The notes under the pieces are model-generated. The model ran no database searches. It saw only the letters and a list, made by a program, of their open reading frames with translations, and had not been told where the DNA came from. A stretch of DNA of 64,000 bases from positions 139,996,001 through 140,060,000 of the forward strand of contig OX597815.1 in NCBI GenBank assembly GCA_951406725.2, read 5' to 3'. Position numbers and translations under genes: made by a program. Shown in pieces: positions 3,025 to 55,971 of this stretch. Each line of letters starts with the position of its first letter. Within the stretch, counting starts at the first letter, position 1. The DNA is from Octopus vulgaris (taxonomy: Eukaryota).

Positions 3025-4648
3025 ACTATTTCAAACGAATAGGACGCAATGCATTGCGTCGCCATAAATATACAACGAGAGTTGTTTTGAAAGTAATACG
3101 AAATTTGGCATAACTTTTTTTTTATTAACGTAGATCGCTTAAATTGTATTTGTTGGATGCCCAACGCTAATCTGTATAAATGTTGTAACTGTGTGTAGGT
3201 GCCCCTTGGTAGATTGCATCGTCCGGAGTGGTGGTGATGGGTGGTGGTGGTGGAAGGAAGCCTATATTGGTATTTGGGCGGCGAGCTGGCAGAAACGTTA
3301 GCACGCCGGGCGAAATGCGTAACCGTATTTCGTCTGCCGTTACGTTCTGAGTTCAAATTCCGCCGAGGTCGACTTTGCCTTTCATCCTTTCGGGGTAGAT
3401 AAATTAAGTACCGGTTACGCACTGGGGTCGATATAATCGACTTAATCCGTTTGTCTGTCCTTGTTTATCCCCTCTGTGTTTAGCCCCTTGTGGGTAGTAA
3501 AGAAATATATATTGGTATTAAGAGCGTTATAAAGGGATTTATACAGTAAGTTCCAGTAAGATATTGAGTTGGTTATATTGTCTATTTCTCCGAGATTCAT
3601 GGACTTGGAATGTAATGCTTTCGTTTGATTTCCTTATCAAATGAGAAAATTGCAGGAAGTTGTATTTTTCTATAGGGTTCTGACATTTATCCAAGTATAG
3701 AGTGCAACAATTTGTTTATGTGCAATTGTTTATTTAGACCTAGGTCAGTCGGATATAATATCAAAGCATTCTGACTTCGAACGTCCTTCCTTCTCCAGAT
3801 AACAATGAGATTTGTTCCGAAAGCAATTCAGAAATGGACTTATTCTTTTGCATGTAGTGACATACGATGTTCAGATTGCGCATGTAACTTTTCCTCTACA
3901 CAATGGCGCTACTCATAATAGTCTTCATTACAAGTGATGCATTTACACCATTATTGAATCCAACTTTGAAATCCTATTAGAAAAACATTAGGTGTGCACT
4001 CAAGTACTCACTTCTTTACGTTTACTTTCACCTCGACTAGACAACCCAATTTACTGATTGTCTGATTAGTTGCCAAAGATATGTGTGGTCGTGCATTGCC
4101 ATCGTGAATGCAGATCCTTTTCAGATTCTTGTTCGGTCTCTTTTTCATAATGGCTTCTATAAGCGTTTTTTGAGCGTCACCTCCCAAATCTGTCATCTGA
4201 CTTTTGGGTGTTGAACTTTTTAGACATTCAAGTGACATGTGTCACTCGTCTAACTGCACGGATCAATTCGACCCTGGCGAGTCGTGTCAGTCGTAGCAGT
4301 TAACAATCTCCTACCGTATGATTTGTCTTCAGTGCTGGTTTACCCCTTTTTAAACTTCTTCATCCATTTATGCACGATGTCATCCTCATAAACAACCTGT
4401 GGTTTTCTATGAATCTTAACAAGCCTGCACCCTAATGACGGCATGTTTCTTCTGCTTGAAACCCATTATTTACAAAAAGAACACGAAGAGGAGGTACTAT
4501 AGAAGAAAAGTTATTTTATTAACAAGTACAATTTGAGAGATCTACGCTAATTAAAAAGTTATGCCAACTTTGGTATTACTTTCAAAACAACTCTCGTTGT
4601 ATATTTATTGAAACGCAATGCATTATGTCATTCTCGTTTGAAAACAGT
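3025..4648 (-). mobile_element. Degenerate Tc1/mariner transposon bounded by ~130-bp inverted repeats (3025-3155 / 4520-4648), with nested insertions
   Basis: Arms share AATGCATTGCGT..ATAAATATACAACGAGAGTTGTTTTGAAAGTAAT..TTGGCATAACTTTTT. Minus strand gives VHKWMKKFKKG*TSTED (~4320-4375; mariner HTH region) and IHDGNARPH (~4083-4113; HDNARPH motif). Confidence 0.75.
3277..3507 (+). mobile_element. tRNA-derived SINE, family A (Nin/Deu-like central domain)
   Basis: Head GGCGGCGAGCTGGCAGAAACGTTAGC, B-box-like GAGTTCAAATTCC, GCCTTTCATCCTTTCGGGGTAGATAAATTAAGTACC; 12-bp TSD TATATTGGTATT (3263-3274 / 3508-3519); multiple copies in the window. Confidence 0.9.
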
Positions 4649-22089: not shown

Positions 22090-23100
22090 CTGTATTTGCG
22101 GGAGTTGATGTGCAAGGCAAGTATGCTCTGAAGATCTCAATCTTATTGTTCAATTTTATATTATTGGATTTTAATCCGTGAGCTATCCGGAACTTCCCAG
22201 TTAGGCAAAGAGAACATCTCTTGGTTCTTCTACCCAGAATTTTCCATTTGATGGTAAATGGTATTCTTTTCCTTGTAGTTTCCAGACTCCAGACTAGTTG
22301 CGTGATTTCTGTTGTCCTCTTTCCCGGATGTTTGAAGAACCTAACATGTGAATGGTACTGTTGCTTAAAACGATCCTGTACCATACTCACATATTATTCT
22401 CCGTTCTCTGTTTGGCTGGTTCGAACTGGTGCAATGGTGGCTTCATATACTATAGACTTCACTTTACATTCTCGTTGTTGCGGGTAGTCATCCTTTATCA
22501 TGCAGGAACATCCTTGGTTTTATTCGGATTCGATTTTTGGGGTGATTTTTGGCCTCATGTAAGGTCTGCAGAAATAGCTGATTTTCTCAGAATGCCTATT
22601 GATTATCTTATACTTGCTTTTGTTTTTGTCTCCTGATTCAAGGTTAGATATATACTTAATTTCATCTTTGGGTTCGCTGTCTTCGAGTACTTCATTATAG
22701 TAAGGAGCTGTTTATGAAATATCTATTTTGAGGAAGATAAGCTGGAGATCCTGCAGCTAATATTGAGGACTAGGTTTTTAAATACTACGGGTGGCATGAC
22801 TCTCTGTTAATATATCTTAACCTTTCATTGAGTTTATGGTACAGTTTATAAGCATCTGTAGTTAAATCTAGGTTAACATCTGGGAAATTAGCATTAGTGA
22901 GCTTAGTACCTACTGTTATTTATAGTCTTAAGTTGCTAAGGGTCTCAGTTAGGTCTTTACAAAATTTATTTATGGTATGGGCGTTGCATTTATGCATGAT
23001 AATTAAAGTATCGTCGCGGTAGAGATCAATGGTGCGGTTGTGGAATTTTTCCTTAAGTGTTTGAAGGATGAATAATCTAATGAAGTTGCTCACACTGAGA
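22090..23100 (-). mobile_element. Old degenerate Penelope-like element (RT C-terminus + GIY-YIG endonuclease)
   Basis: DLYRDD RT motif (~23010-23030); GCSC..YP..ECKVKSIVYEATI..YVSMVQDRFKQQYHSH..VWSL..FTIKWKIL..CSLCL..KLNNKIEIF, collinear with the element at 41469-42508; multiple stops. Confidence 0.85.
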
Positions 23101-32148: not shown

Positions 32149-32183
<35 letters not shown>

Positions 32184-32186
<3 letters not shown>

Positions 32187-32412
32187 CTTTACTACCCACA
32201 AGGGGCTAAACACAGAGGGGACAAACAAGGACAGACAAAGGAATTAAGTCGATTACATCGACCCCAGTGCATAACTGGTACTTAATTTATCGACCCCGAA
32301 AGGATGAAAGGCAAAGTCGACCTCGGCGGAATTTGAACTCGGAACGTAACGACAGACGAAATACGGCTACGCAGGTCGCCCGGCGTGCTAACGTTTCTGC
32401 CAGCTCGTCGCC
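32184..32412 (-). mobile_element. SINE family A
   Basis: Near-identical reverse complement of 3277-3507; flanked by (TA)n. Confidence 0.92.
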
Positions 32413-33015
32413 TTTATATATATATATATATATTGACACACATGTACCTACATAGATACATACATACGTATATATGTATGTAGCTATGCTTATCCGGTAC
32501 AGGACATCACAAAAACGTAAACAAACATGAAATACGAAAATAAAGTTGGGTACGCACCAAAACGAGAGAAACAAATGGAAAACAAAATAACATAAAAAAC
32601 GACCCTTCACCAGTTGTTGGCTCTCCTTCTACTCCTTATTTCGAGCAATATGTTTGCATACATACCGGCGAGAGACAGTCATGGACGGGCAAGCTACTTG
32701 TCCTTAAGCCGGAACTACTAATACATTGTCATCGTAAGGAATTACAAGGTCATAGGCCTGTGAATTGCAAAATTGCATTTAACTTACAAACTCTACATCG
32801 TGGCATGAAAAGTCGTACCGTTAAAATTGTAAATACTCTTACGAGTAAGTGAAGAATACAACCGTTCAATGAGCTTCAGAATGAGTACTGTACGAACGTC
32901 TCTCCTAAAATATATGACATCAACCAGCGAAAGTATCTCTTATGATGTTTGTTGTAAAACTACCGAATAGAAAATTACGTGGGAAATATATAAGAATTTG
33001 ATATTCCTTTCAACT

Positions 33016-34541: not shown

Positions 34542-35709
34542 GTCATCTCGACGAACAACAACCGAGGGAACAAGCCGGCTTCCGGAAGAACTACAGTACG
34601 ATGGACCATATATTTACTCTAACACAACTGCTTGAGCGAGCTAATGAGTTCAAGCTGCCTCTTTGCGTTGCGTTTGTAGACTATGAGAAGACCTTCGATA
34701 GCGTGGAAACCTGACGCAGTGCTAAACTTGCTGCAGAGGCAAGAAGTCGAGGCGCAATATATGCAACTGCTCAGGGAGGCAAATTCCGGATGCACCGCCG
34801 ACATAGCTCTACTGTCATCACCCGTACGAGTGCCAGTCGAGAAGGGAGTGAAGCAAGGCGATACGATCTTCCCAAAACTTTTCACCGCATGTCTCGAACA
34901 GATCATCAGAGGCATTGACTGGCAAGGCGGTGTCAACATCAATGGCCAGCTCCTCACCCACCTCCGTTTCGATGACGACATCGTACTCATCACTGAAACC
35001 ACGGATCAGCTTCAGACCATGCTGACGGAGCACGACATCAAAAGCTCTGCAGACAACGTACCAACCGGTCGAATGGTGATCGGCAGTGATGAAATAGAGG
35101 AGGTAAAGGAATATGTCTACCTGGGACAGGAAGTGAATATGTGCCGAGATATCAAAAAGGAAATCTCAAGGAGAGTAAGGGCCGGATGGAAGGCGTTTAA
35201 TGGCATAAGGGATGTGCTCAAGGGAAGGTTGGACAGGACCACCCGCGCCAACCTCATCAACAGTACAGTTCTACCTGCAATGTTATATGGTAGTGAAACA
35301 TGGGCTACCACAAAGGGAGAAGAGCAGAGATTGGTAACGGCTCAAAGAGCCGTAGAGAGTTCAGTGCTTGGTATCTCGTTGAGAGAGCACATCAGTAGCG
35401 AGATCATCAGAAAGAAGTCCGGCGTGAGGGATGTCATCGCAGAGTATACACGCAACAAGTTTAGATGGGCTGGACACGTCGCCTGGCTCACCAATAATCG
35501 GTGGACCCGCGCAGTTGTCGAGTGGTACCCGCGCGAGCGGAAACGCCCACCCGGAAGGCCTCCACGACGGTGGAGTTACGATTTCAGGAGGACGATTGGG
35601 ATCACGTGGATGAGAAAGGCGCGATCCAGAGAGGAGTGGACAGCGTGCTGTGACCAGCGGTGTCAAATGGACGCCTGACGGACTGGTCGATGAAGGTGAT
35701 CAAGGTGAT
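34542..35709 (+). mobile_element. 5'-truncated RTE-clade LINE reverse transcriptase (frameshift near 34708) with 3' end
   Basis: LDEQQPREQAGFRKNYSTMDHIF..FVDYEKTFDSV / KGVKQGDTIFPKLF / HLRFDDDIVL / YVYLG / LYGSETW / RWAGHV / RPPGRPPRRW; tail (AAGGTGAT)x2 then (TA)n. Confidence 0.95.
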
Positions 35710-36968: not shown

Positions 36969-38138
36969 TAGATTGACAGATAAATGGATGAATGGATAGA
37001 CAGACACAGACAGACAGACACACACACAGACAGACAGACAGATAGATTGGTAGACAGATAGTTAGACAGATAAAAACATAGATAGACACAAACCGGCAGA
37101 TAGGCAGACAAACAATAACTAGAGTGTTACATAGATACATAGATAGTTAGAAAGAAAGAAAGACAGATAGATAGATGGATAGATGAATGGATGGATGGAT
37201 AGACAGACAGACTAATACATAGCTAGCTGGATAGATTAGTACATACATAGTTGTAGAAATAGTAACAACGTTAAAATAGAGAGACAGATACAGAGAAGAT
37301 AAATCTCTAATGCATTGTAGAACACACACCTGTTAGGAATAGTCTAAGTTAATTGTGTAATATATAACTTAGCTCCCGGGTCATATTCAAACTGGCAGTA
37401 TGGGTGATACAGCACATGAAACATCTCACTAGGCAATCATGTTAAAATATAATCCTTTAATCAAGCTGTCACTTTAACCAATAGTAGTTTAGAATAAATT
37501 TCCTAGTGGAGCATAATGTTATTGCAATTTTTGGCAGTAGTCCAAAAACAGAGGACTTGAACGTGATCGATTTGAAAATAATTGTATTCCCCTGCAGATA
37601 GCCAGGATGAAGTTTTGGCACAGGTGATGAAAAACAAAAACGCTAAAAGTATTATAAAAAATAAAAAAAATATATAAAAAAAGTTTAAGTAAACGCGAAA
37701 TTTGGATATCAACCTTTTGAGTTGTGAAATTATTAGACAGTTTTCGAAAGCGGAGCAAGATAGAGAACTATTGGTGTGTGTCGTTACAGTTTGGTGCTCT
37801 GCACTAACAAATATGATAGCTGCGGGAGAGCTATTCCACTCTATAGCGTCAGAATTAGTTTATCGTTATTGGTATTTCATAGAGTCTTTACGAATGAATT
37901 GCAGACAGTTCTAAGGAGGTGGTGGAGGTAGTGGTGTGGATAGTTTGGAATGGAAGAATTTGTGAGTTTATCTTCTATTTTTTTTTCTTTCTTATCGAAT
38001 AGACTTTTAAAGATTTTGCTTAAATAAGTACATGAAAATGATATCTAGACACAAAAATGGACAACACTGTTTCGTATACATACGTACGTACATACATACA
38101 TATGGTTATATGCACATAGACACATATATGCACTCATA

Positions 38139-38182
<44 letters not shown>

Positions 38183-38202
38183 ATATATAAATATGTGCAT
38201 AT

Positions 38203-38242
<40 letters not shown>

Positions 38243-38248
<6 letters not shown>

Positions 38249-38710
38249 TATATAGAAGGAGCTTCTACAGGACTAGTACTGTTTCATTCAAGAGAAATCT
38301 TCAGGAAGCTATTTAACAAGAATTGTATTAGCATTTATACATTTAGGCAGGTTTAAAGGAGTGGTGGTGGGGGACTTTTTTGGGGGTAGGCATAGCGCAA
38401 AATATCATACTTGGGGGAGTGGTCAAGGAGTCAGTGGTAAGTTAGATGAAAGAATAGATAAATAAAAAAATAAATAAATAAAAAATAAAAAAATAAAAAA
38501 ATAAAAAAATAAAATAAAAAAATAAAAAAATAAAAAATATAAAAAATATATATAAAAAAATATATATATAAAATATATATATAAAAAAATATATATATAT
38601 AAAAAAAGGGGGATAGAGTTATAGGTAAATAAGGAGATTCTCACTTATACCTATACACACATGTATACGTATCTACACACACATACATACATACACATAT
38701 ATATACACAC

Positions 38711-38756
<46 letters not shown>

Positions 38757-40156
38757 CATATGTACACACATACATACATATCTACATACACACATACATA
38801 CACCCGCCCACATATACAAATTTATACACATGCACATGCCTATACCTGTCTACACATACACACACGTATATATGCATACACTCACTCCCATGCATGCACG
38901 CATACACACATGTATATATATATATATATATATACCCACGACCACACATACATATATACACATAAAAATATATATTCATACGCACATACACTCATGCACA
39001 CACAACACACCTAGTTCCCTATATACACATATTTACACCTATATATACATACACCTATGTACACATATATATATATATAAACATATACACGCATACATAT
39101 ATATACATGTGTGCACATACATACATACACACATATATACATACACATACACATACTCATGTGTACCTATACATACCTACACATACACACATACATACAT
39201 ACAAATATACATATACATATATATATATACAATCCAATACAGGCCCATTCCCTAATTTTAATTTTATTATCTTCATTTATTACTTTTGTTATCTTTGATC
39301 GCTAGGGCTAAGAATCCTGGCAATGGCTGCATGTCCATTTGTCTGTCTACTAGAAGGCAAGTACTCATTCCCGCACGCACACTCATTAGCACGTACATTC
39401 ACCCATTCGTACACTCATACACATACACGTACGCACGCGTTATATTCATACATACAAACATCTACATACGTTCACGTATATACACATACTTACTCGTACC
39501 TACAGATTCGTGTCTACACTTTAGGAGGCTAGTCTATACATATACACCAATAAATATATATATATATATATATACCCGCATATACATACACACACACACA
39601 TATATACTCCTACATACAGATACATACCTATATATATATATATATATACACATACATACACATACACACATACATATACACACACATACATACACATATA
39701 TATACATACACAAACATATATACACACATATATATATACATACACACATACACACATACATACGTATACATACATACATACATACATCCATACATCCATA
39801 CTTACATGCATTTATACGCATACACACACCCATCTATATATATGTATATATATATATATATATATATACACACTCACACATACATATACAAATCTACGCA
39901 CACACATACATACATACACGTATACGCATACACGCACATACACATATACATGCGTACCCATACACGTGCACACACGCACGCGCATCCATATATATACACA
40001 CTCACACATATATATACACGTGTGCAAGCATACATACATACTCATACGCGCACACATACTTACAAACACATATATGCACACACTTACACACATATATATA
40101 CATACACATATACATGCATACATACATATATGCATACATACACACACGCACTCATA

Positions 40157-40190
<34 letters not shown>

Positions 40191-40261
40191 CATATATATA
40201 TACATATATAGATATATATACACATACATACACATACACATACATACACACATATACACAC

Positions 40262-40296
<35 letters not shown>

Positions 40297-40802
40297 TACA
40301 TATATACACATATACATACATATACATACACACACACATACATATATACATATACACTGATACACATACCCATACATACACATGCATATACTTATATCAC
40401 TACATACTCACATATATAAACATATACACATATACACACATACATATATACATGTACATACACATACGTATGCATATATATATATACATATATATACACA
40501 TATATATATATATACATATATACACACACACACACACATACATATACACATATACATGTATACATACGCAAAAAAGATACACATATATACACATACACAC
40601 ACACAGACAGATGCATATACATACATATATATATATAAACTACATATCTATATAAATACATACATAATACACATATACACACACATATATATACATTCAT
40701 GCATATACATATACAAGTATACATACACATACATACACACACACGCGCACACATACATATACACACACACATATACAAATACATACATACACACATACAC
40801 AT

Positions 40803-40843
<41 letters not shown>

Positions 40844-40928
40844 CATGTACACATACACATATGTATATATATATCAACAAGGGAGGGTAAAGTTAATTAG
40901 TTATTAATCAATTTCATCAAGTGTTCAG
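38243..40928 (-). repeat. Left inverted arm (3' UTR/pLTR in ORF sense)
   Basis: Reverse complement of 42509-45203, including unique islands such as GATCGCTAGGGCTAAGAATCCTGGCAATGGCTGCATG; mirrored ORFs in the track. Confidence 0.97.
38260..38310 (-). ncRNA. Type I hammerhead ribozyme motif (copy in ORF sense)
   Basis: Minus strand agcttc-CTGAAGA-tttctcttgaat-GAAA-cag(tactagtc)ctg-TA-gaagct. Confidence 0.75.
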
Positions 40929-41208
40929 TATGTAAAGGGACCATTATTATTTTGAGTAAACAATGTTAGAGGGAAAAAAATTCTCTAAGTAGTGGAAGAG
41001 GCTAAAAAACTTTATTGGCTGCTATTTCTAGAAAGTTTAGTATGTGGCAAAGTAATTTATTTTATTTTCCTAAGCCCTAATTATATAATATTTTATACAT
41101 ACATACACATACATAAGCACATACATTTACACATACATATGCATATACATATATACACATATACATACAAACACATATACACATATACACACACACACAC
41201 ATACAAGC

Positions 41209-41240
<32 letters not shown>

Positions 41241-41468
41241 GCAAATATATATACATATATATTTTTACATGCATACATACACACACACACACATAATACA
41301 TGCGTATATTCCTACTGTACCCATGCATTTCTATACATATATACATACATACATACGATACACATATACAAGCGTGCACATATAATATGTGAAAGGTCTT
41401 AGGAGAAAAGGTAATCGGGGGTGCTAGGGGAACAGTGGGGTTGGGGGGGGGGTTGGGGGGGGTTGTCA

Positions 41469-42508
41469 TCAATCAGGTTGCCGGGTAGGTCTATAGTTCT
41501 TGTAGTTCGCATACTTCTTATGCATGCAATTTGGGGAGTGTTCTGAAAATTTGTTAAGGAGAGGGCCTTTGGCGAACAGGATCTCTAGGCTCTCTGATAT
41601 GCATAGGTCACAGCAGGTATGTCCTCCTGTGTACGAGCGCGCCTTCTGTAGTAGTTTCCACTTGGTCTTGAAGGGGATTGAGTTCCTTTTAAGGTACCAG
41701 ATGTGGGCGGCGAGGGTAGTTTGGTTGGATTTATCCTGTCGCCGGAACGAGTGTGTATGTGCATACCAGCGGGTCTTAAAGCTGTTTGACGTCATTCCAA
41801 TGTAGGATTTACTTTTATCGTCAAGGCCTGATCTTACCTCGCATTTATATACTAGGTCCCTCTGTAGGCAGTTGTTGTTGAGGGGGCAGGTGGTTTTATC
41901 ATGGCAGTTGCAATTGCTATCGGACGTTGGATGGGCCCCGGAGAAAGTAGATATGTTAAGTTTTTTCACATTGTTGTTGGCTAGGTTCCTGGCTAGGTTG
42001 GGCGTGGTAGAGTAGGAGAGTCTAATAGTGTTCTTATTTAGGATAGTGTAGTACTTATGTTGGGTGGGGAAGTGTTTCTGTAGGAGAGTGAAAAAGATCT
42101 TAGCTACAGGTGTAGCGACCTCACGGTTGAAGGGGGGTTGTACCAGCTAATGTGTCTTCGTCTATTTTTCCTGGGCTGGCGTGGGGCTATACTAGTGTAG
42201 GTAATCTTATCTTTAAAACCACTGCGGGCCAGGGCCTCGTTGTAATAGGGGGCTGCGGCCTTAAAGATATCTTCCGTGGCGGACAGGCTAGAGATTCTAA
42301 TTGAGACACTTTTTACTAGGTTATCTAATATATTTCTGGGGTGGTTGGAATTGATATCTATATATCTAAGGGATTCATTTGGTTTGTGGTACGGGTAATA
42401 AAGTGAGGTTTTTAAGTCGAGGGTGACATCTAGGAAGTTAGCCTTAGTTAAGTTGGATTCTAGGGTAATCCTAAGGCCTAAGTTTTTAAAGAAGGTGTGA
42501 AGATTTTT
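41469..42508 (-). pseudogene. Penelope-like ORF, 5'-truncated: RT thumb, CxCx5Cx5C linker, GIY-YIG endonuclease with CCHH residues (Naiad-like)
   Basis: KNLGLRITLE..ANFLDVTLDL..YHKPN..SNHP..YYNEALARSGF..ISWYNPP/FN..NKNTIRLSYS..CNCHDKTTCPLNNNC..LVYKCEV..SYIGMT..FKTRWYAH..HIW..CDLC..LLNKFSE..CMH; single 1-nt frameshift in the G6 run at 42132-42137. Confidence 0.93.
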
Positions 42509-42593
42509 CTGAACACTTGATGAAATTGATTAATAACTAATTAACTTTACCCTCCCTTGTTGATATATATATACATATGTATATGTGTACATG

Positions 42594-42638
<45 letters not shown>

Positions 42639-43138
42639 ATGTGTGTATGTATGTATTTGTATATGTGTGTGTGTATATGTATGTGTGCGCGTGTGTGTGT
42701 ATGTATGTGTATGTATAATTGTATATGTATATGCATGAATGTATATATATGTGTGTGTATATGTGTATTATGTATGTATTTATATAGATATGTAGTTTAT
42801 ATATATATATGTATGTATATGCATCTGTCTGTGTGTGTGTATGTGTATATATGTGTATCTTTTTTGCGTATGTATACATGTATATGTGTATATGTATGTG
42901 TGTGTGTGTGTGTATATATGTATATATATATATATGTGTATATATATGTATATATATATATGCATACGTATGTGTATGTACATGTATATATGTATGTGTG
43001 TATATGTGTATATGTTTATATATGTGAGTATGTAGTGATATAAGTATATGCATGTGTATGTATGGGTATGTGTATCAGTGTATATGTATATATGTATGTG
43101 TGTGTGTATGTATATGTATGTATATGTGTATATATGTA

Positions 43139-43173
<35 letters not shown>

Positions 43174-43242
43174 GTGTATATGTGTGTATGTATGTGTATG
43201 TGTATGTATGTGTATATATATCTATATATGTATATATATATG

Positions 43243-43276
<34 letters not shown>

Positions 43277-43772
43277 TGAGTGCGTGTGTGTATGTATGCA
43301 TATATGTATGTATGCATGTATATGTGTATGTATATATATGTGTGTAAGTGTGTGCATATATGTGTTTGTAAGTATGTGTGCGCGTATGAGTATGTATGTA
43401 TGCTTGCACACGTGTATATATATGTGTGAGTGTGTATATATATGGATGCGCGTGCGTGTGTGCACGTGTATGGGTACGCATGTATATGTGTATGTGCGTG
43501 TATGCGTATACGTGTATGTATGTATGTGTGTGCGTAGATTTGTATATGTATGTGTGAGTGTGTATATATATATATATATATATATACATATATATAGATG
43601 GGTGTGTGTATGCGTATAAATGCATGTAAGTATGGATGTATGGATGTATGTATGTATGTATACGTATGTATGTGTGTATGTGTGTATGTATATATATATG
43701 TGTGTATATATGTTTGTGTATGTATATATATGTGTATGTATGTGTGTGTATATGTATGTGTGTATGTGTATG

Positions 43773-43822
<50 letters not shown>

Positions 43823-44690
43823 TATGTATCTGTATGTAGGAGTATATATGTGTGTGTGTGTATGTATATGCGGGTATATATATACATATGTATATTTATT
43901 GGTGTATATGTATAGACTAGCCTCCTAAAGTGTAGACACGAATCTGTAGGTACGAGTAAGTATGTGTATATACGTGAACGTATGTAGATGTTTGTATGTA
44001 TGAATATAACGCGTGCGTACGTGTATGTGTATGAGTGTACGAATGGGTGAATGTACGTGCTAATGAGTGTGCGTGCGGGAATGAGTACTTGCCTTCTAGT
44101 AGACAGACAAATGGACATGCAGCCATTGCCAGGATTCTTAGCCCTAGCGATCAAAGATAACAAAAGTAATAAATGAAGATAATAAAATTAAAATTAGGGA
44201 ATGGGCCTGTATTGGATTGTATATATATATATGTATATGTATATTTGTATGTATGTATGTGTGTATGTGTAGGTATGTATAGGTACACATGAGTATGTGT
44301 ATGTGTATGTATATATGTGTGTATGTATGTATGTGCACACATGTATATATATGTATGCGTGTATATGTTTATATATATATATATGTGTACATAGGTGTAT
44401 GTATATATAGGTGTAAATATGTGTATATAGGGAACTAGGTGTGTTGTGTGTGCATGAGTGTATGTGCGTATGAATATATATTTTTATGTGTATATATGTA
44501 TGTGTGGTCGTGGGTATATATATATATATATATACATGTGTGTATGCGTGCATGCATGGGAGTGAGTGTATGCATATATACGTGTGTGTATGTGTAGACA
44601 GGTATAGGCATGTGCATGTGTATAAATTTGTATATGTGGGCGGGTGTATGTATGTGTGTATGTAGATATGTATGTATGTGTGTACATATG

Positions 44691-44741
<51 letters not shown>

Positions 44742-45270
44742 ATATATATGTGTATGTATGTATGTGTGTGTAGATACGTATACATGTGTGTATAGGTATA
44801 AGTGAGAATCTCCTTATTTACCTATAACTCTATCCCCCCTTTTTTATATATATATATTTTTTTATATATATATTTTATATATATATTTTTTTATATATAT
44901 TTTTTATATTTTTTATTTTTTTATTTTTTTATTTTATTTTTTTATTTTTTTATTTTTTTATTTTTTATTTATTTATTTTTTTATTTATCTATTCTTTCAT
45001 CTAACTTACCACTGACTCCTTGACCACTCCCCAAAGTATGATATTTTGCGCTATGCCTACCCCCAAAAAAGTCCCCCACCACCACTCCTTTAAACCTGCC
45101 TAAATGTATAAATGCTAATACAATTCTTGTTAAATAGCTTCCTGAAGATTTCTCTTGAATGAAACAGTACTAGTCCTGTAGAAGCTCCTTCTATATAATA
45201 AATTAATTTTACTCTGCTATGTATTGAGTACCTTACTTACTGTGGTTAACCCCGAATCAACCCGGGACCT
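42509..45270 (+). repeat. Right inverted arm plus unduplicated tail (45204-45270)
   Basis: Begins CTGAACACTTGATGAAATTG (mirror of 40909-40928); ends ..GGTTAACCCCGAATCAACCCGGGACCT. Confidence 0.97.
45136..45186 (+). ncRNA. Type I hammerhead ribozyme motif; predicted cleavage after GUA at 45180
   Basis: Stem I agcttc/gaagct, CTGAAGA 45142-45148, short stem II (ttc/gaa), GAAA 45161-45164, stem III ACAG/CTGT. Confidence 0.75.
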
Positions 45271-45272
45271 AC

Positions 45273-45344
<72 letters not shown>

Positions 45345-45624
45345 GGATCTATATATCTGTATATATTACATACACATGCACACGCGCACGCGCACGAGCA
45401 CAAACATATATACATAGCACTTTTAAAGACGTTTTCTCCATATACTAATACCACTCTCTGTAGGCATTGTTTAGACATGGTGAAAGCACTGTCTTGTAGC
45501 CACTGTCTCCATTTCATATTGGAAAATTGCAATCTATAAGCACTATTTCTGCATCGTAATAACGCTCCAGGCACAATTAGTCTACAGTAAAATTACTGTT
45601 CTATTACTACGAAACTATAAACAA

Positions 45625-47912: not shown

Positions 47913-48106
47913 CAACAGCAATAACAAATTAAAAGAAGACCACTGTGACAGCAACAATGATAAACCAATGAGGTTTTTAATACAATTGGTCACCTACAAG
48001 AAATAGCAGCTAAAACAATTCTTTAAATCCATACCCTGTTGTTTTGAATAAAGGAAAGACATTGAGCAAAGTAATCCCTAATATATACAATGCCTAATAT
48101 ATACAA

Positions 48107-48332
48107 GGCGGCGAGCTGGCAGAAACGTTAGCACGGCGGGCGAAATGCTTTGCGGTATTTCGTCTGCCGCTACGTTTTGAGTTCAAATTCCGCCGAGGTC
48201 GACTTTTCCTTTCATCCTTTCGGGGTCGATAAATTAAGTACCAGTTTCGCACTGGGGTCGATGTAATCGACTTAATCCGTTTGTCTGTCCTTGTTTGTCC
48301 CGTCTATGTTTAGCCCCTTGTGGGTATTAAAG
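48107..48332 (+). mobile_element. SINE family A
   Basis: Near-identical to 3277-3507; possible TSD ATATATACAA. Confidence 0.92.
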
Positions 48333-48509
48333 ATATATATGTATATATATATATATATATATACAATGTTGAAAGGATTTTGATCATGAGTTCTGCTGGA
48401 TCAGGACCGACCTCAGGCTAAACAACAACAACGGATCAATTTTATCCGGAAGAAAGATCAGCCAAATTTCCCTCAAATACACCTTACTTCCTTAATAAAG
48501 GACACGTTG

Positions 48510-54982: not shown

Positions 54983-55053
54983 ATGAAAAAAAAAACAACT
55001 CGAAGAAATTATATATATATATATATATATATAATTTCTTCGAGTTGCTTTTT

Positions 55054-55059
<6 letters not shown>
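54983..55059. repeat. Near-perfect palindrome centred on (TA)n
   Basis: ATGAAAAAAAAAACAACTCGAAGAAAT-(TA)n-ATTTCTTCGAGTTGCTTTTTTTTCAT. Confidence 0.9.
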
Positions 55060-55817: not shown

Positions 55818-55824
<7 letters not shown>

Positions 55825-55968
55825 ATTATATAGAAGGAGCTTCCTGAAGATTTCTCTTGAATGAAACAGTACTAGTCCTGTAGAAGCTCCTTCTATATAA
55901 TAAATTAATTTTACTCTGCTATGTATTAGTACCTTACTTACTGTGGTTAACCCCGAATCAACCCGGGA

Positions 55969-55971
<3 letters not shown>
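55818..55971 (+). mobile_element. 154-bp non-coding mini-insertion of the same Penelope-like family: inverted 26-bp end + hammerhead + tail
   Basis: 55838-55971 is essentially identical to 45136-45270 (1-nt deletion); 55818-55843 is the exact reverse complement of 55883-55908; (TA)n on both flanks. Confidence 0.92.
55838..55888 (+). ncRNA. Hammerhead ribozyme motif, third copy
   Basis: CTGAAGA 55844-55850, GAAA 55863-55866, GTA 55880-55882. Confidence 0.75.

Follow-up and report, generated by a model that had tools for sequence, protein, structure and literature searches.

How did a Penelope-like element (PLE) come to lie as two long inverted arms with a tail at one end only? The question is raised by a 7-kb stretch of Octopus vulgaris DNA (38243-45270) within the 64,000-nt segment analyzed here (contig OX597815.1, positions 139,996,001 to 140,060,000; hereafter the window). 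A reading from the sequence alone had described this stretch as a PLE insertion into (TA)n, a description borne out by the RT and GIY-YIG pieces within it and the (TA)n on both flanks.

Anatomy of the inverted insertion

Self-BLAST returned a single inverted match of 2708 columns at 98.4% identity, 38243-40928 against 45203-42509. In a global alignment the arms differed by 7 substitutions and 7 indels, with every indel falling within a (TA)n, (CA)n or (ATAC)n run, and the earlier description of the arms as nearly identical was thus accurate. Between them lies a 1580-bp spacer whose minus strand carries coding sequence in two frames, 42508-42107 and 42146-41472, matching positions 364-498 and 494-709 of 712 in a profile of full-length relatives; one base is missing near 42131 compared with family contigs. 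Because the coding pieces start at profile position 364, the junction at 42508/42509 interrupts the RT immediately past the YRDD motif region, in agreement with the sequence-only reading, which had placed RT-thumb/GIY-YIG coding sequence in the spacer and the cut in mid-RT. The features are listed below.

38136..38242: left (TA)n target flank
38243..40928, minus strand: arm 1, the distal 3' UTR of the ORF-bearing half, which stops at putative start site 1 and has no tail; 71% purine-pyrimidine alternating
38260..38310, minus strand: type I hammerhead motif of the ORF-bearing half (motif scan), predicted cut after 38266
40929..41468, minus strand: proximal 3' UTR (arm and spacer are natively contiguous in family contigs)
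41469..42146, minus strand: RT C-terminus, CxCx5C linker, GIY-YIG endonuclease (CxxC/E/N/CxH) and stop codon
42107..42508, minus strand: RT fragment, from just past YRDD through the thumb
42508..42509: head-to-head junction of two 5'-truncated halves, with a 1-nt overlap and no palindrome
42509..45203, plus strand: arm 2, an inverted 5'-truncated copy of the 3' UTR
45136..45186, plus strand: type I hammerhead motif of arm 2, with a Hydra-type core, predicted cut after 45180
45204..45271, plus strand: tail of about 65-68 nt, from putative start site 1 to putative start site 2
45211..45232, plus strand: hairpin 1, a degenerate version of the bulged hairpin of the clade, within the tail
45272..45366: right (TA)n/(CA)n target flank
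55818..55971, plus strand: mini insertion, a further copy of this family within pure (TA)n

In contrast to the canonical PLE insertion unit, a target-site duplication cannot be read here inside (TA)n. A ~2.7-kb dsRNA, as a candidate ADAR/siRNA substrate, had been suggested for any read-through transcript; Pfam recognized no host exon around the insertion in the 142 of 315 candidate frames searched. The hammerhead motifs lie on opposite strands, and a read-through RNA would therefore carry a single sense ribozyme motif and one antisense copy, rather than being bracketed by ribozymes as had been proposed. Family contigs in runs X19, X18 and X1 depart from the window sequence at 42509 in both directions, one into the upstream ORF and the other into the native continuation of the arm. 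Neither a contig bridging 42508/42509 nor an empty site was seen among the pieces listed for the four runs aligned to 41375-42562, a comparison in which contigs cannot show absence. The family is very abundant in the runs compared.

The layout is not unusual. PLEs are known to carry an inverted 5'-truncated copy together with a tail at one end (PMC3846280, PMC8557442), and 5 of 78 related loci are inverted, none of the five having both ends on its contig. Penelope-13_HM of the Hydra clade (Craig et al. 2021, PMC8557442) has the inverted copy, 966 nt long and 5'-truncated, with a ribozyme on each strand. The canonical unit (Pen2a_Av and Pen1_Av, PMC3846280; Fig. 2 of PMC8557442) shares the 5' inverted copy and the tail at one end, and Pen1_Av (PMC3846280) also shares a long spacer (0.9-1.5 kb) ahead of its 3' pLTR. 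Its arms measure about 0.2 kb and its tail 30-40 nt, compared to 2.7 kb and about 65 nt in the window, and the window insertion, unlike the canonical unit, has neither a direct pLTR nor a junction palindrome. The insertion itself, extreme as it is, represents an ordinary case of a known arrangement.

Placement in the Hydra clade

Penelope/Poseidon, Neptune, Nematis and Naiad had been put forward as the clades for comparison; the motifs instead point to Hydra, absent from that list. In the profile of relatives the RT is followed by a GIY-YIG endonuclease (EN), fused at the C-terminus in one ORF, as in an EN+ PLE. The linker carries CxCx5C at residues 79-87, and CX2-5CxxC is absent. Within the EN, C179, C182, E185, N198, C207 and H209 are invariant across 15 sequences, with CxxC and CxH around E and N and no conserved cysteine pair within the GIY-YIG core (no CCHH). 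These linker and EN traits are shared with the Hydra clade (PMC8557442), as is the (TA)n target, seen in both insertions of the window. A canonical sense hammerhead motif was found near the 3' end by motif scan, with its core laid out as in the File S2 rows of PMC8557442. YRDD is present in 18 of 18 long relatives, which by eye resemble published Hydra proteins. Of the N-terminal RWK and DKT motifs that mark the Hydra clade, alongside a lack of IFD and CxC, the 18 long relatives carry DK[TS] in 15 cases and RW[KR] in 7, with DKG in none; the window copy itself has no N-terminal half.

Other clades fit less well. Neptune and Nematis need both a CX2-5CxxC linker finger and CCHH in the EN, and both are absent here. 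For Penelope/Poseidon one expects no linker finger and CCHH in the EN, the reverse of what was found, while Naiad and Chlamys have an N-terminal EN and no canonical hammerhead, as opposed to the C-terminal EN and hammerhead motif of this element. By its predicted protein and ribozyme motifs, we place the element in the Hydra clade of PLEs. It appears to be a different family from Hydra-1_Obim, which has other ribozyme stems and another RT sequence (compared by eye).

A predicted model of the EN (pLDDT 87) matched I-TevI best (Z 9.6, rmsd 2.4 over 89 residues), followed by T4 EndoII and UvrC; Foldseek gave nothing under E 0.001, with T4 EndoII top-ranked. Pfam returned no GIY-YIG match, recognized neither ORF piece and missed the full-length relatives too, and a PDB sequence search found no match. 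An exhaustive protein search yielded 6579 relatives, and a word-indexed search for longer relatives found none. Rfam on 36000-58000 gave no hammerhead among the 150 of 179 matches listed, which were essentially simple-repeat miRNA matches, and an exact 30-nt ribozyme pattern had no match in metagenome contigs.

The element departs from its relatives in length. Hydra-clade elements are 'generally short', under 3 kb (PMC8557442), and the 3' UTR of the window element alone is 3.2 kb. As shortness is there a tendency and not a defining trait, we regard the element as a variant whose length is compatible with Hydra membership. Its stop-to-ribozyme distance of 3202 nt exceeds the whole of each of 14 complete published Hydra-clade consensus elements (2084-2729 bp), and the corresponding distance is 102-549 nt in 36 of the 78 related loci. 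The UTR is 68% microsatellite-like, compared to at most 3.1% for any whole locus among the 78. A 3.2-kb microsatellite-like 3' UTR is new relative to the Hydra-clade relatives.

A duplicated hairpin at the ends of insertions

In the relatives, a covarying bulged hairpin occurs twice, about 60 nt apart, between the ribozyme and the ATG. A hairpin pattern matched 43 times in 31 post-ribozyme stretches, the same stretches from whose inspection it had been devised, against a shuffle mean of 1.14 and a maximum of 4 (500 shuffles). Where both copies were present (17 stretches), they recurred at a period of 54-68 nt (median 60); hairpin 2 ended 7-36 nt before the ATG (median 20, n=31). The pair above the 2-nt bulge, which is not in the pattern, was C-G in 26 of 42 cases and U-A in 15, with one case unpaired, and the next two upper-stem pairs formed in 30/37 and 27/29, counts that are not independent events because several loci are related families; other bulge lengths failed. 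The hairpin is not strand-symmetric: its 2-nt 3' bulge is fixed and its upper stem contains some G-U pairs. The stretch upstream of each copy is A/T-rich. Rfam on 10 loci reported two hammerheads and no family for the hairpin, which is also absent from the main text of PMC8557442. By eye, this hairpin can also be seen at the end of the published Hydra-2_Amil consensus. Our literature searches found no description of the motif or of twin priming in PLEs.

The ends of insertions keep register with this hairpin. Among 18 non-duplicate alignment breaks (including 5 subfamily or intermediate breaks and one end at -65, and with TA overlap moving measured ends by a few bases), 12 lay within 0-12 nt on the upstream side of a hairpin (7 at hairpin 1, 5 at hairpin 2) and none between +1 and +54, for a crude binomial P of about 6e-6. 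A duplicated hairpin with insertion ends just before either copy is new for the Hydra clade.

In the window, a model built without it ranked 45197-45236 first in the 64 kb at E 0.71, the next, a chance match, being at 0.98. This copy folds weakly (about -1 kcal/mol) and lies 31 nt past the predicted ribozyme cut, compared to 34-72 nt in relatives. The window's insertion ends fall at -7, -4 and +61 relative to hairpin 1, and hairpin 2 of the window family is unseen because it would lie beyond the insertion end.

The tail is family sequence, since a second insertion in the window (55838-55970) carries it with one base missing. This mini insertion is 154 bp long with (TA)n on both sides, and consists of a 26-nt inverted arm ending at site 1 and a 134-nt half ending at site 2, joined through the 6-nt stem I of the hammerhead. 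Its ends are the same two sites as those of the large insertion (the equivalents of 45206 and about 45271), and it repeats the tail-at-one-end pattern. The longer half holds the tail (55906-55970), so that the earlier assignment of the tail to the shorter, ORF-less arm stands for the large insertion and not as a rule. We do not take the 26-nt arm as proof of run-off at the ribozyme cut, as joining at stem I would give an identical sequence; within the last 270 nt, 10 joints of 6 nt or more are possible, stem I among them. Each of the two insertions in the window had one site-1 end and one site-2 end (2/2), where free choice would give this 1 time in 4. Given ends just upstream of either copy, the tail is therefore one period of the hairpin duplication, and the duplication would account for a tail at one end only, provided that each hairpin is a likely starting point for copying.

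Origin of the two halves

The left half has no tail and the right half no spacer. Each half thus has family sequence not found in its partner, which means that neither arose by fold-back copying of the other and that two primings are likely; two cDNAs primed separately and joined at their truncated ends, as first suggested, remain the best reading. Taken as a whole, we consider it probable that the locus is a recent Hydra-clade insertion of two 5'-truncated head-to-head copies in (TA)n, likely made in one event in which both strands primed at two predicted, hairpin-set starts. In this scheme, a tandem transcript would run 3' UTR, hammerhead, hairpin 1, hairpin 2 and next ORF; each hairpin would be bound by an RT-EN protein, and the endonuclease would nick both (TA)n strands. 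Each DNA 3' end would then pair with a short A/U-rich stretch just 5' of a hairpin and prime cDNA, 4.27 kb from site 1 and 2.76 kb from site 2. The cDNA 3' ends would be joined (by a 1-nt overlap in the large copy, by hammerhead stem I in the mini copy) and each filled in, and the tail, being the distance between the two start signals, would appear on one end only. Both enzymes probably used the same RNA molecule, with the first cDNA displaced by the second enzyme; of all the steps this is the weakest. Two RNA sites would not call for a protein dimer.

L1 twin priming offers a parallel to this scheme, since there too cDNA is primed on the element RNA by both strands of the target, and the joining of the products involves little homology. 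The second L1 primer begins far upstream, which yields an inversion without overlap, unlike the window insertion, whose putative starts lie about 60 nt apart at the 3' end and would therefore yield an inverted duplication. Passages of PMC11167929 (Frangieh et al. 2024) on Poseidon of Anolis carolinensis in vitro describe a PLE protein that cuts and extends both strands of an AT-rich target from two RNA start sites; these internal RT starts lie downstream of the hammerhead and delimit the tail, and a dimer is predicted. The same passages differ from our case in the clade, in starts inside the ORF in an AC-rich stem loop and in priming reported without homology, and they describe no duplicated hairpin.

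Two primings could also have occurred with the hairpin acting at another step, as an endonuclease signal in DNA or as a 5' UTR element serving translation or as a promoter, and with the ends set by the A/T-rich stretches alone. The closeness of hairpin 2 to the ATG favors this, as do the A/T-rich upstream stretches, where target pairing alone could favor these places, and the D. virilis tail, cited in a passage of PMC11167929 as required for endonuclease recognition in DNA. We nevertheless find it unlikely, because the 0-12 nt register holds to both copies in different families, and the strand asymmetry, 3' bulge and G-U pairs fit a single-stranded RNA fold.

Two independent, opposite insertions might have been fused by deletion or homogenized by gene conversion, or an inverted master retrotransposed whole. 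The abundance of the family is in keeping with this, and related elements do stack in one (TA)n (L002, L018, L036 and L050). Those pile-ups are tail to tail with intervening (TA)n, however, in contrast to the head-to-head joint of the window, which has none. The arms diverge by 0.26% (0.11-0.54%), under a rough family diversity of 0.58% (P about 0.01), the latter figure being based on the contig depths of a different region and perhaps of different individuals. With the same layout repeated in the mini copy, we hold these routes to be quite improbable. Copying of the second arm from the first, by cDNA fold-back, by an RT switch onto its own product or by self-primed antisense RNA (as proposed in PMC3846280), would account for near-identical arms, for the palindromes reported at inverted junctions in PMC3846280 and for the perfect hairpin at the mini copy's joint. 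Yet the tail could not have come from copying the left half, nor the ORF from copying the right half, and the large junction has a 1-nt overlap and no palindrome, making this very unlikely. An assembly or library fold-back artefact, with which the lack of a bridging contig among the pieces listed for four runs would agree, is the least credible account, given the 7 positions at which the arms are unlike, the differing sequences of the two flanks, the independent presence of the tail in the mini insertion and a breakpoint that is no mirror axis, with 1.58 kb of unique spacer between the arms; the runs may derive from individuals without the window insertion.

Beyond this locus, we propose more tentatively, at somewhat less than even confidence for the whole, that the Hydra clade carries a twin-priming cassette of two hairpins, each predicted to dock one RT, and that the window family is also a microsatellite carrier. 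If so, the RT start would be fixed in the A/U-rich bases upstream of each hairpin, a single RNA would be copied from both break ends, and a telomerase-related RT would have a defined RNA docking signal. The cassette would account for the one-sided tail and inverted arms of Penelope elements, the origin of which is called an open question in PMC8557442 and in a passage of PMC11167929; with a twice-occurring covarying RNA motif that registers both classes of insertion end, this question becomes a direct experiment. The hairpin is also a boundary marker that curators can use for Hydra-clade elements, which Pfam does not pick up. Finally, the 3.2-kb microsatellite-rich UTR suggests how so abundant an element could seed a genome with simple repeats and with target sites of its own: if the proposal is true, the family would spread about 2 kb of microsatellite per long insertion, including 16 of its own (TA)n target tracts.

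Anatomy and identity of the insertion

The large insertion consists of a left half (arm 1 and a spacer with part of the ORF) and a right half (arm 2 and a tail), which meet head to head at 42508/42509:

38243 to about 45271: large insertion
38243-40928, minus strand: arm 1
42509-45203, plus strand: arm 2
45204 to about 45271: tail

When we compared the window with itself, 38243-40928 matched 45203-42509 in inverted orientation at 98.4% identity over 2708 columns, and alignment showed that the arms differ by 7 substitutions and in the length of microsatellites at 7 places, in an animal host genome rich in microsatellites. This agreed with the inverted repeat described in the sequence-only reading, and the coding content claimed for the 1580-bp spacer was likewise borne out, with a GIY-YIG domain and part of an RT encoded on its minus strand in two different frames. 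Three changes look private to the window copy, because public family contigs hold one base more near 42131 and differ from it at 41579 and 42176. From 42509, some family contigs run into ORF sequence further upstream and others follow the arm into its native continuation, so the junction is a rearrangement with a 1-nt overlap; no piece bridging it was present among the public contig pieces listed.

The insertion is real, and its architecture is already known. According to PMC3846280 and PMC8557442, Penelope-like elements (PLEs) typically include a 5'-truncated copy in inverted orientation and may bear a tail at one of their ends, and File S1 of PMC8557442 includes Penelope-13_HM, also of the Hydra clade, with an inverted copy of 966 nt. 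Five of 78 related loci have an inverted piece joined on the 5' side (L018, L043, L054, L072 and L076). At the inverted joints of L043 (156-194) and L054 (133-202), the forward copy keeps the whole ORF and starts in the leader (the stretch between ribozyme and ATG), either at a hairpin copy or inside one.

An exhaustive protein search returned 6579 relatives of the element protein, with identity up to about 40-48%, and the predicted fold of its C-terminal piece matched I-TevI, T4 EndoII and UvrC in structure comparison of the model. The motifs of the element are those listed for the Hydra clade in the account of PMC8557442, namely a CxCx5C linker, absence of CCHH, CxxC and CxH flanking the conserved E and N, a hammerhead in sense orientation and a (TA)n target. 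Its hammerhead core has the layout seen in the rows of File S2 (PMC8557442). Hydra-1_Obim was rejected as its identity on by-eye comparison.

Other repeats also occur in the window:

22130-23099, minus strand: remnant of an older and diverged Hydra-type PLE from a different family, interrupted by stops and frameshifts and matching profile positions 322-693
34680-35675, plus strand: LINE reverse transcriptase fragment, 332 codons (Pfam RVT_1, E 2.5e-5)
54983-55059: short palindrome, each arm about 27 bp, centred on (TA)n and followed by a long (TA)n tract; it may be two element ends that face each other
3277-3512, 32156-32421 and 48097-48363: a repeat of SINE-like size (235-267 bp), present three times at 92-94% identity

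Pfam, applied to 142 of 315 candidate frames, found no host exon around the insertion, only the LINE fragment.

An oversized 3' UTR and a duplicated hairpin

The stop codon and the predicted ribozyme cut of the element lie 3202 nt apart, compared to 102-549 nt (median 151) in the 36 of 78 loci that allowed both to be located, a range in which short contigs would conceal long UTRs and several loci belong to one family. The 14 complete consensus elements in the supplement of PMC8557442 are 2084-2729 bp in whole length. Alternating purine-pyrimidine makes up 68% of the UTR and 12% of the window outside it, and the UTR includes 16 (TA)n tracts of at least 6 units. Public contigs identify its first 0.6 kb as a family trait, while the remainder is seen in the two arms only. 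Within the Hydra clade, the family is a new variant with a long UTR.

Downstream of the ribozyme, the relatives carry a hairpin pattern (NCTC, an insert of 6-26 nt, GAGN, usually ACT). It gave 43 matches in 31 stretches, one per family, whereas 500 shuffles gave 1.14 on average and never more than 4; the pattern had been first seen by eye and then made on the sequences in which it was counted. Two copies are present in 17 stretches, spaced 54-68 nt apart (median 60), and the end of the second is separated from the ATG by 7-36 nt (n = 31). We aligned 41 of the 43 matches with the window, leaving out L020, which closely resembles L027, and the second match of L034, where the outer bases do not pair. 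The common fold has a 4-bp stem, then a 3' bulge of 2 nt and an upper stem, and the alignment does not fit a bulge of 0, 1 or 3 nt. Covariation is evident at the first upper pair, which lies outside the pattern (among 42 sequences, 26 have C-G, 15 U-A and 1 no pair), and the next pairs form in 30/37 and 27/29. At the outer pair, where the choice of matches favoured pairing, 37 have G-C, 4 have U-A and the window has A-U; related families inflate all these counts. By eye, the published consensus Hydra-2_Amil has the same hairpin at its end. We found no description of the duplicated hairpin in the literature searched, older reviews lying beyond that scope.

Insertion ends and the hairpins

Alignment of 40 two-hairpin leaders to all loci yielded 24 breaks, of which 18 were scored after removal of 6 flagged duplicates. 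Seven fell 0-12 nt upstream of hairpin 1, five fell 0-4 nt upstream of hairpin 2 and none fell from +1 to +54; five others were subfamily or intermediate breaks, and one was an end at -65 (crude P about 6e-6, with TA overlap shifting measured ends by a few bases). In a by-eye list of 21 tail-bearing ends, 12 of them without a TA run, (TA)n begins 51-67 nt past hairpin 1 in eight and at 37 in one. A model of 40 hairpin instances that left the window out ranked 45197-45236 first in the 64 kb; its E value of 0.71 over the whole window is weak alone, but falls to about 5e-4 when the search is limited to the 100 nt that follow the cut. Relative to this hairpin, the window ends lie at -7, -4 and +61. 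By this register, in relatives and window alike, the Hydra-clade tail is one period of a duplicated signal. The tail of the Anolis element, as PMC11167929 describes it, is bounded by two internal start sites.

Two Hydra-type elements lie tail to tail in L002 (2546-2693), L018 (2257-2396), L036 (2411-2500) and L050 (2541-2682); the members of each pair belong to different families or subfamilies, with one (TA)n or TA-rich tract between them.

Two probable primings and a proposed mechanism

The left half holds 1.58 kb absent from the right, and the right holds a tail absent from the left, which means that neither half can be a copy of the other. Two primings most likely made the large insertion, as the sequence-only reading had proposed in the form of two joined cDNAs. 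Arm divergence (0.26%; 0.11-0.54%) is below the family diversity, roughly 0.58% as estimated from the depths of contigs over the ORF; this points to a single template or to closely related ones. A second event is present in the window:

55818-55971, plus strand: mini insertion of the same family, in pure (TA)n

Its inverted arm of 26 nt ends 3 nt from the arm 1 end position and meets, through hammerhead stem I (6 nt), a half ending with the same tail, here carried by the longer half; in its tail hairpin the GAG, otherwise invariant, is short of one base. Both window events have one end of each kind, for which free choice gives 1 in 4. Both target strands are cut and extended in the Anolis element, according to PMC11167929.

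Alongside the observed anatomy, motifs, covariation and register of ends, we propose that RT would bind each hairpin, that nicked (TA)n strands would pair with the A/U-rich bases directly upstream, and that two cDNAs would extend toward the RNA 5' end, halt early and become joined. The weakest step is a single RNA serving both primings, which would require strand displacement; the RT in question is not known to have an RNase H. The main rival keeps the two primings and gives the hairpin another job.

A transcript spanning both arms could pair over 2.7 kb; among the sequencing runs listed for the element, none was recorded as RNA. It would hold only one sense ribozyme, contrary to the earlier suggestion that ribozymes bracket it. 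The ribozyme fold lies 5.4 kcal/mol above the best fold in native context and 1.2 in the mini insertion, where it is predicted to be nearly lowest in energy because the joint lengthens stem I to 26 bp; low activity is reported for metazoan PLE hammerheads in PMC4209133. The value of the insertion lies in the duplicated, tail-defining hairpin and the oversized microsatellite UTR.
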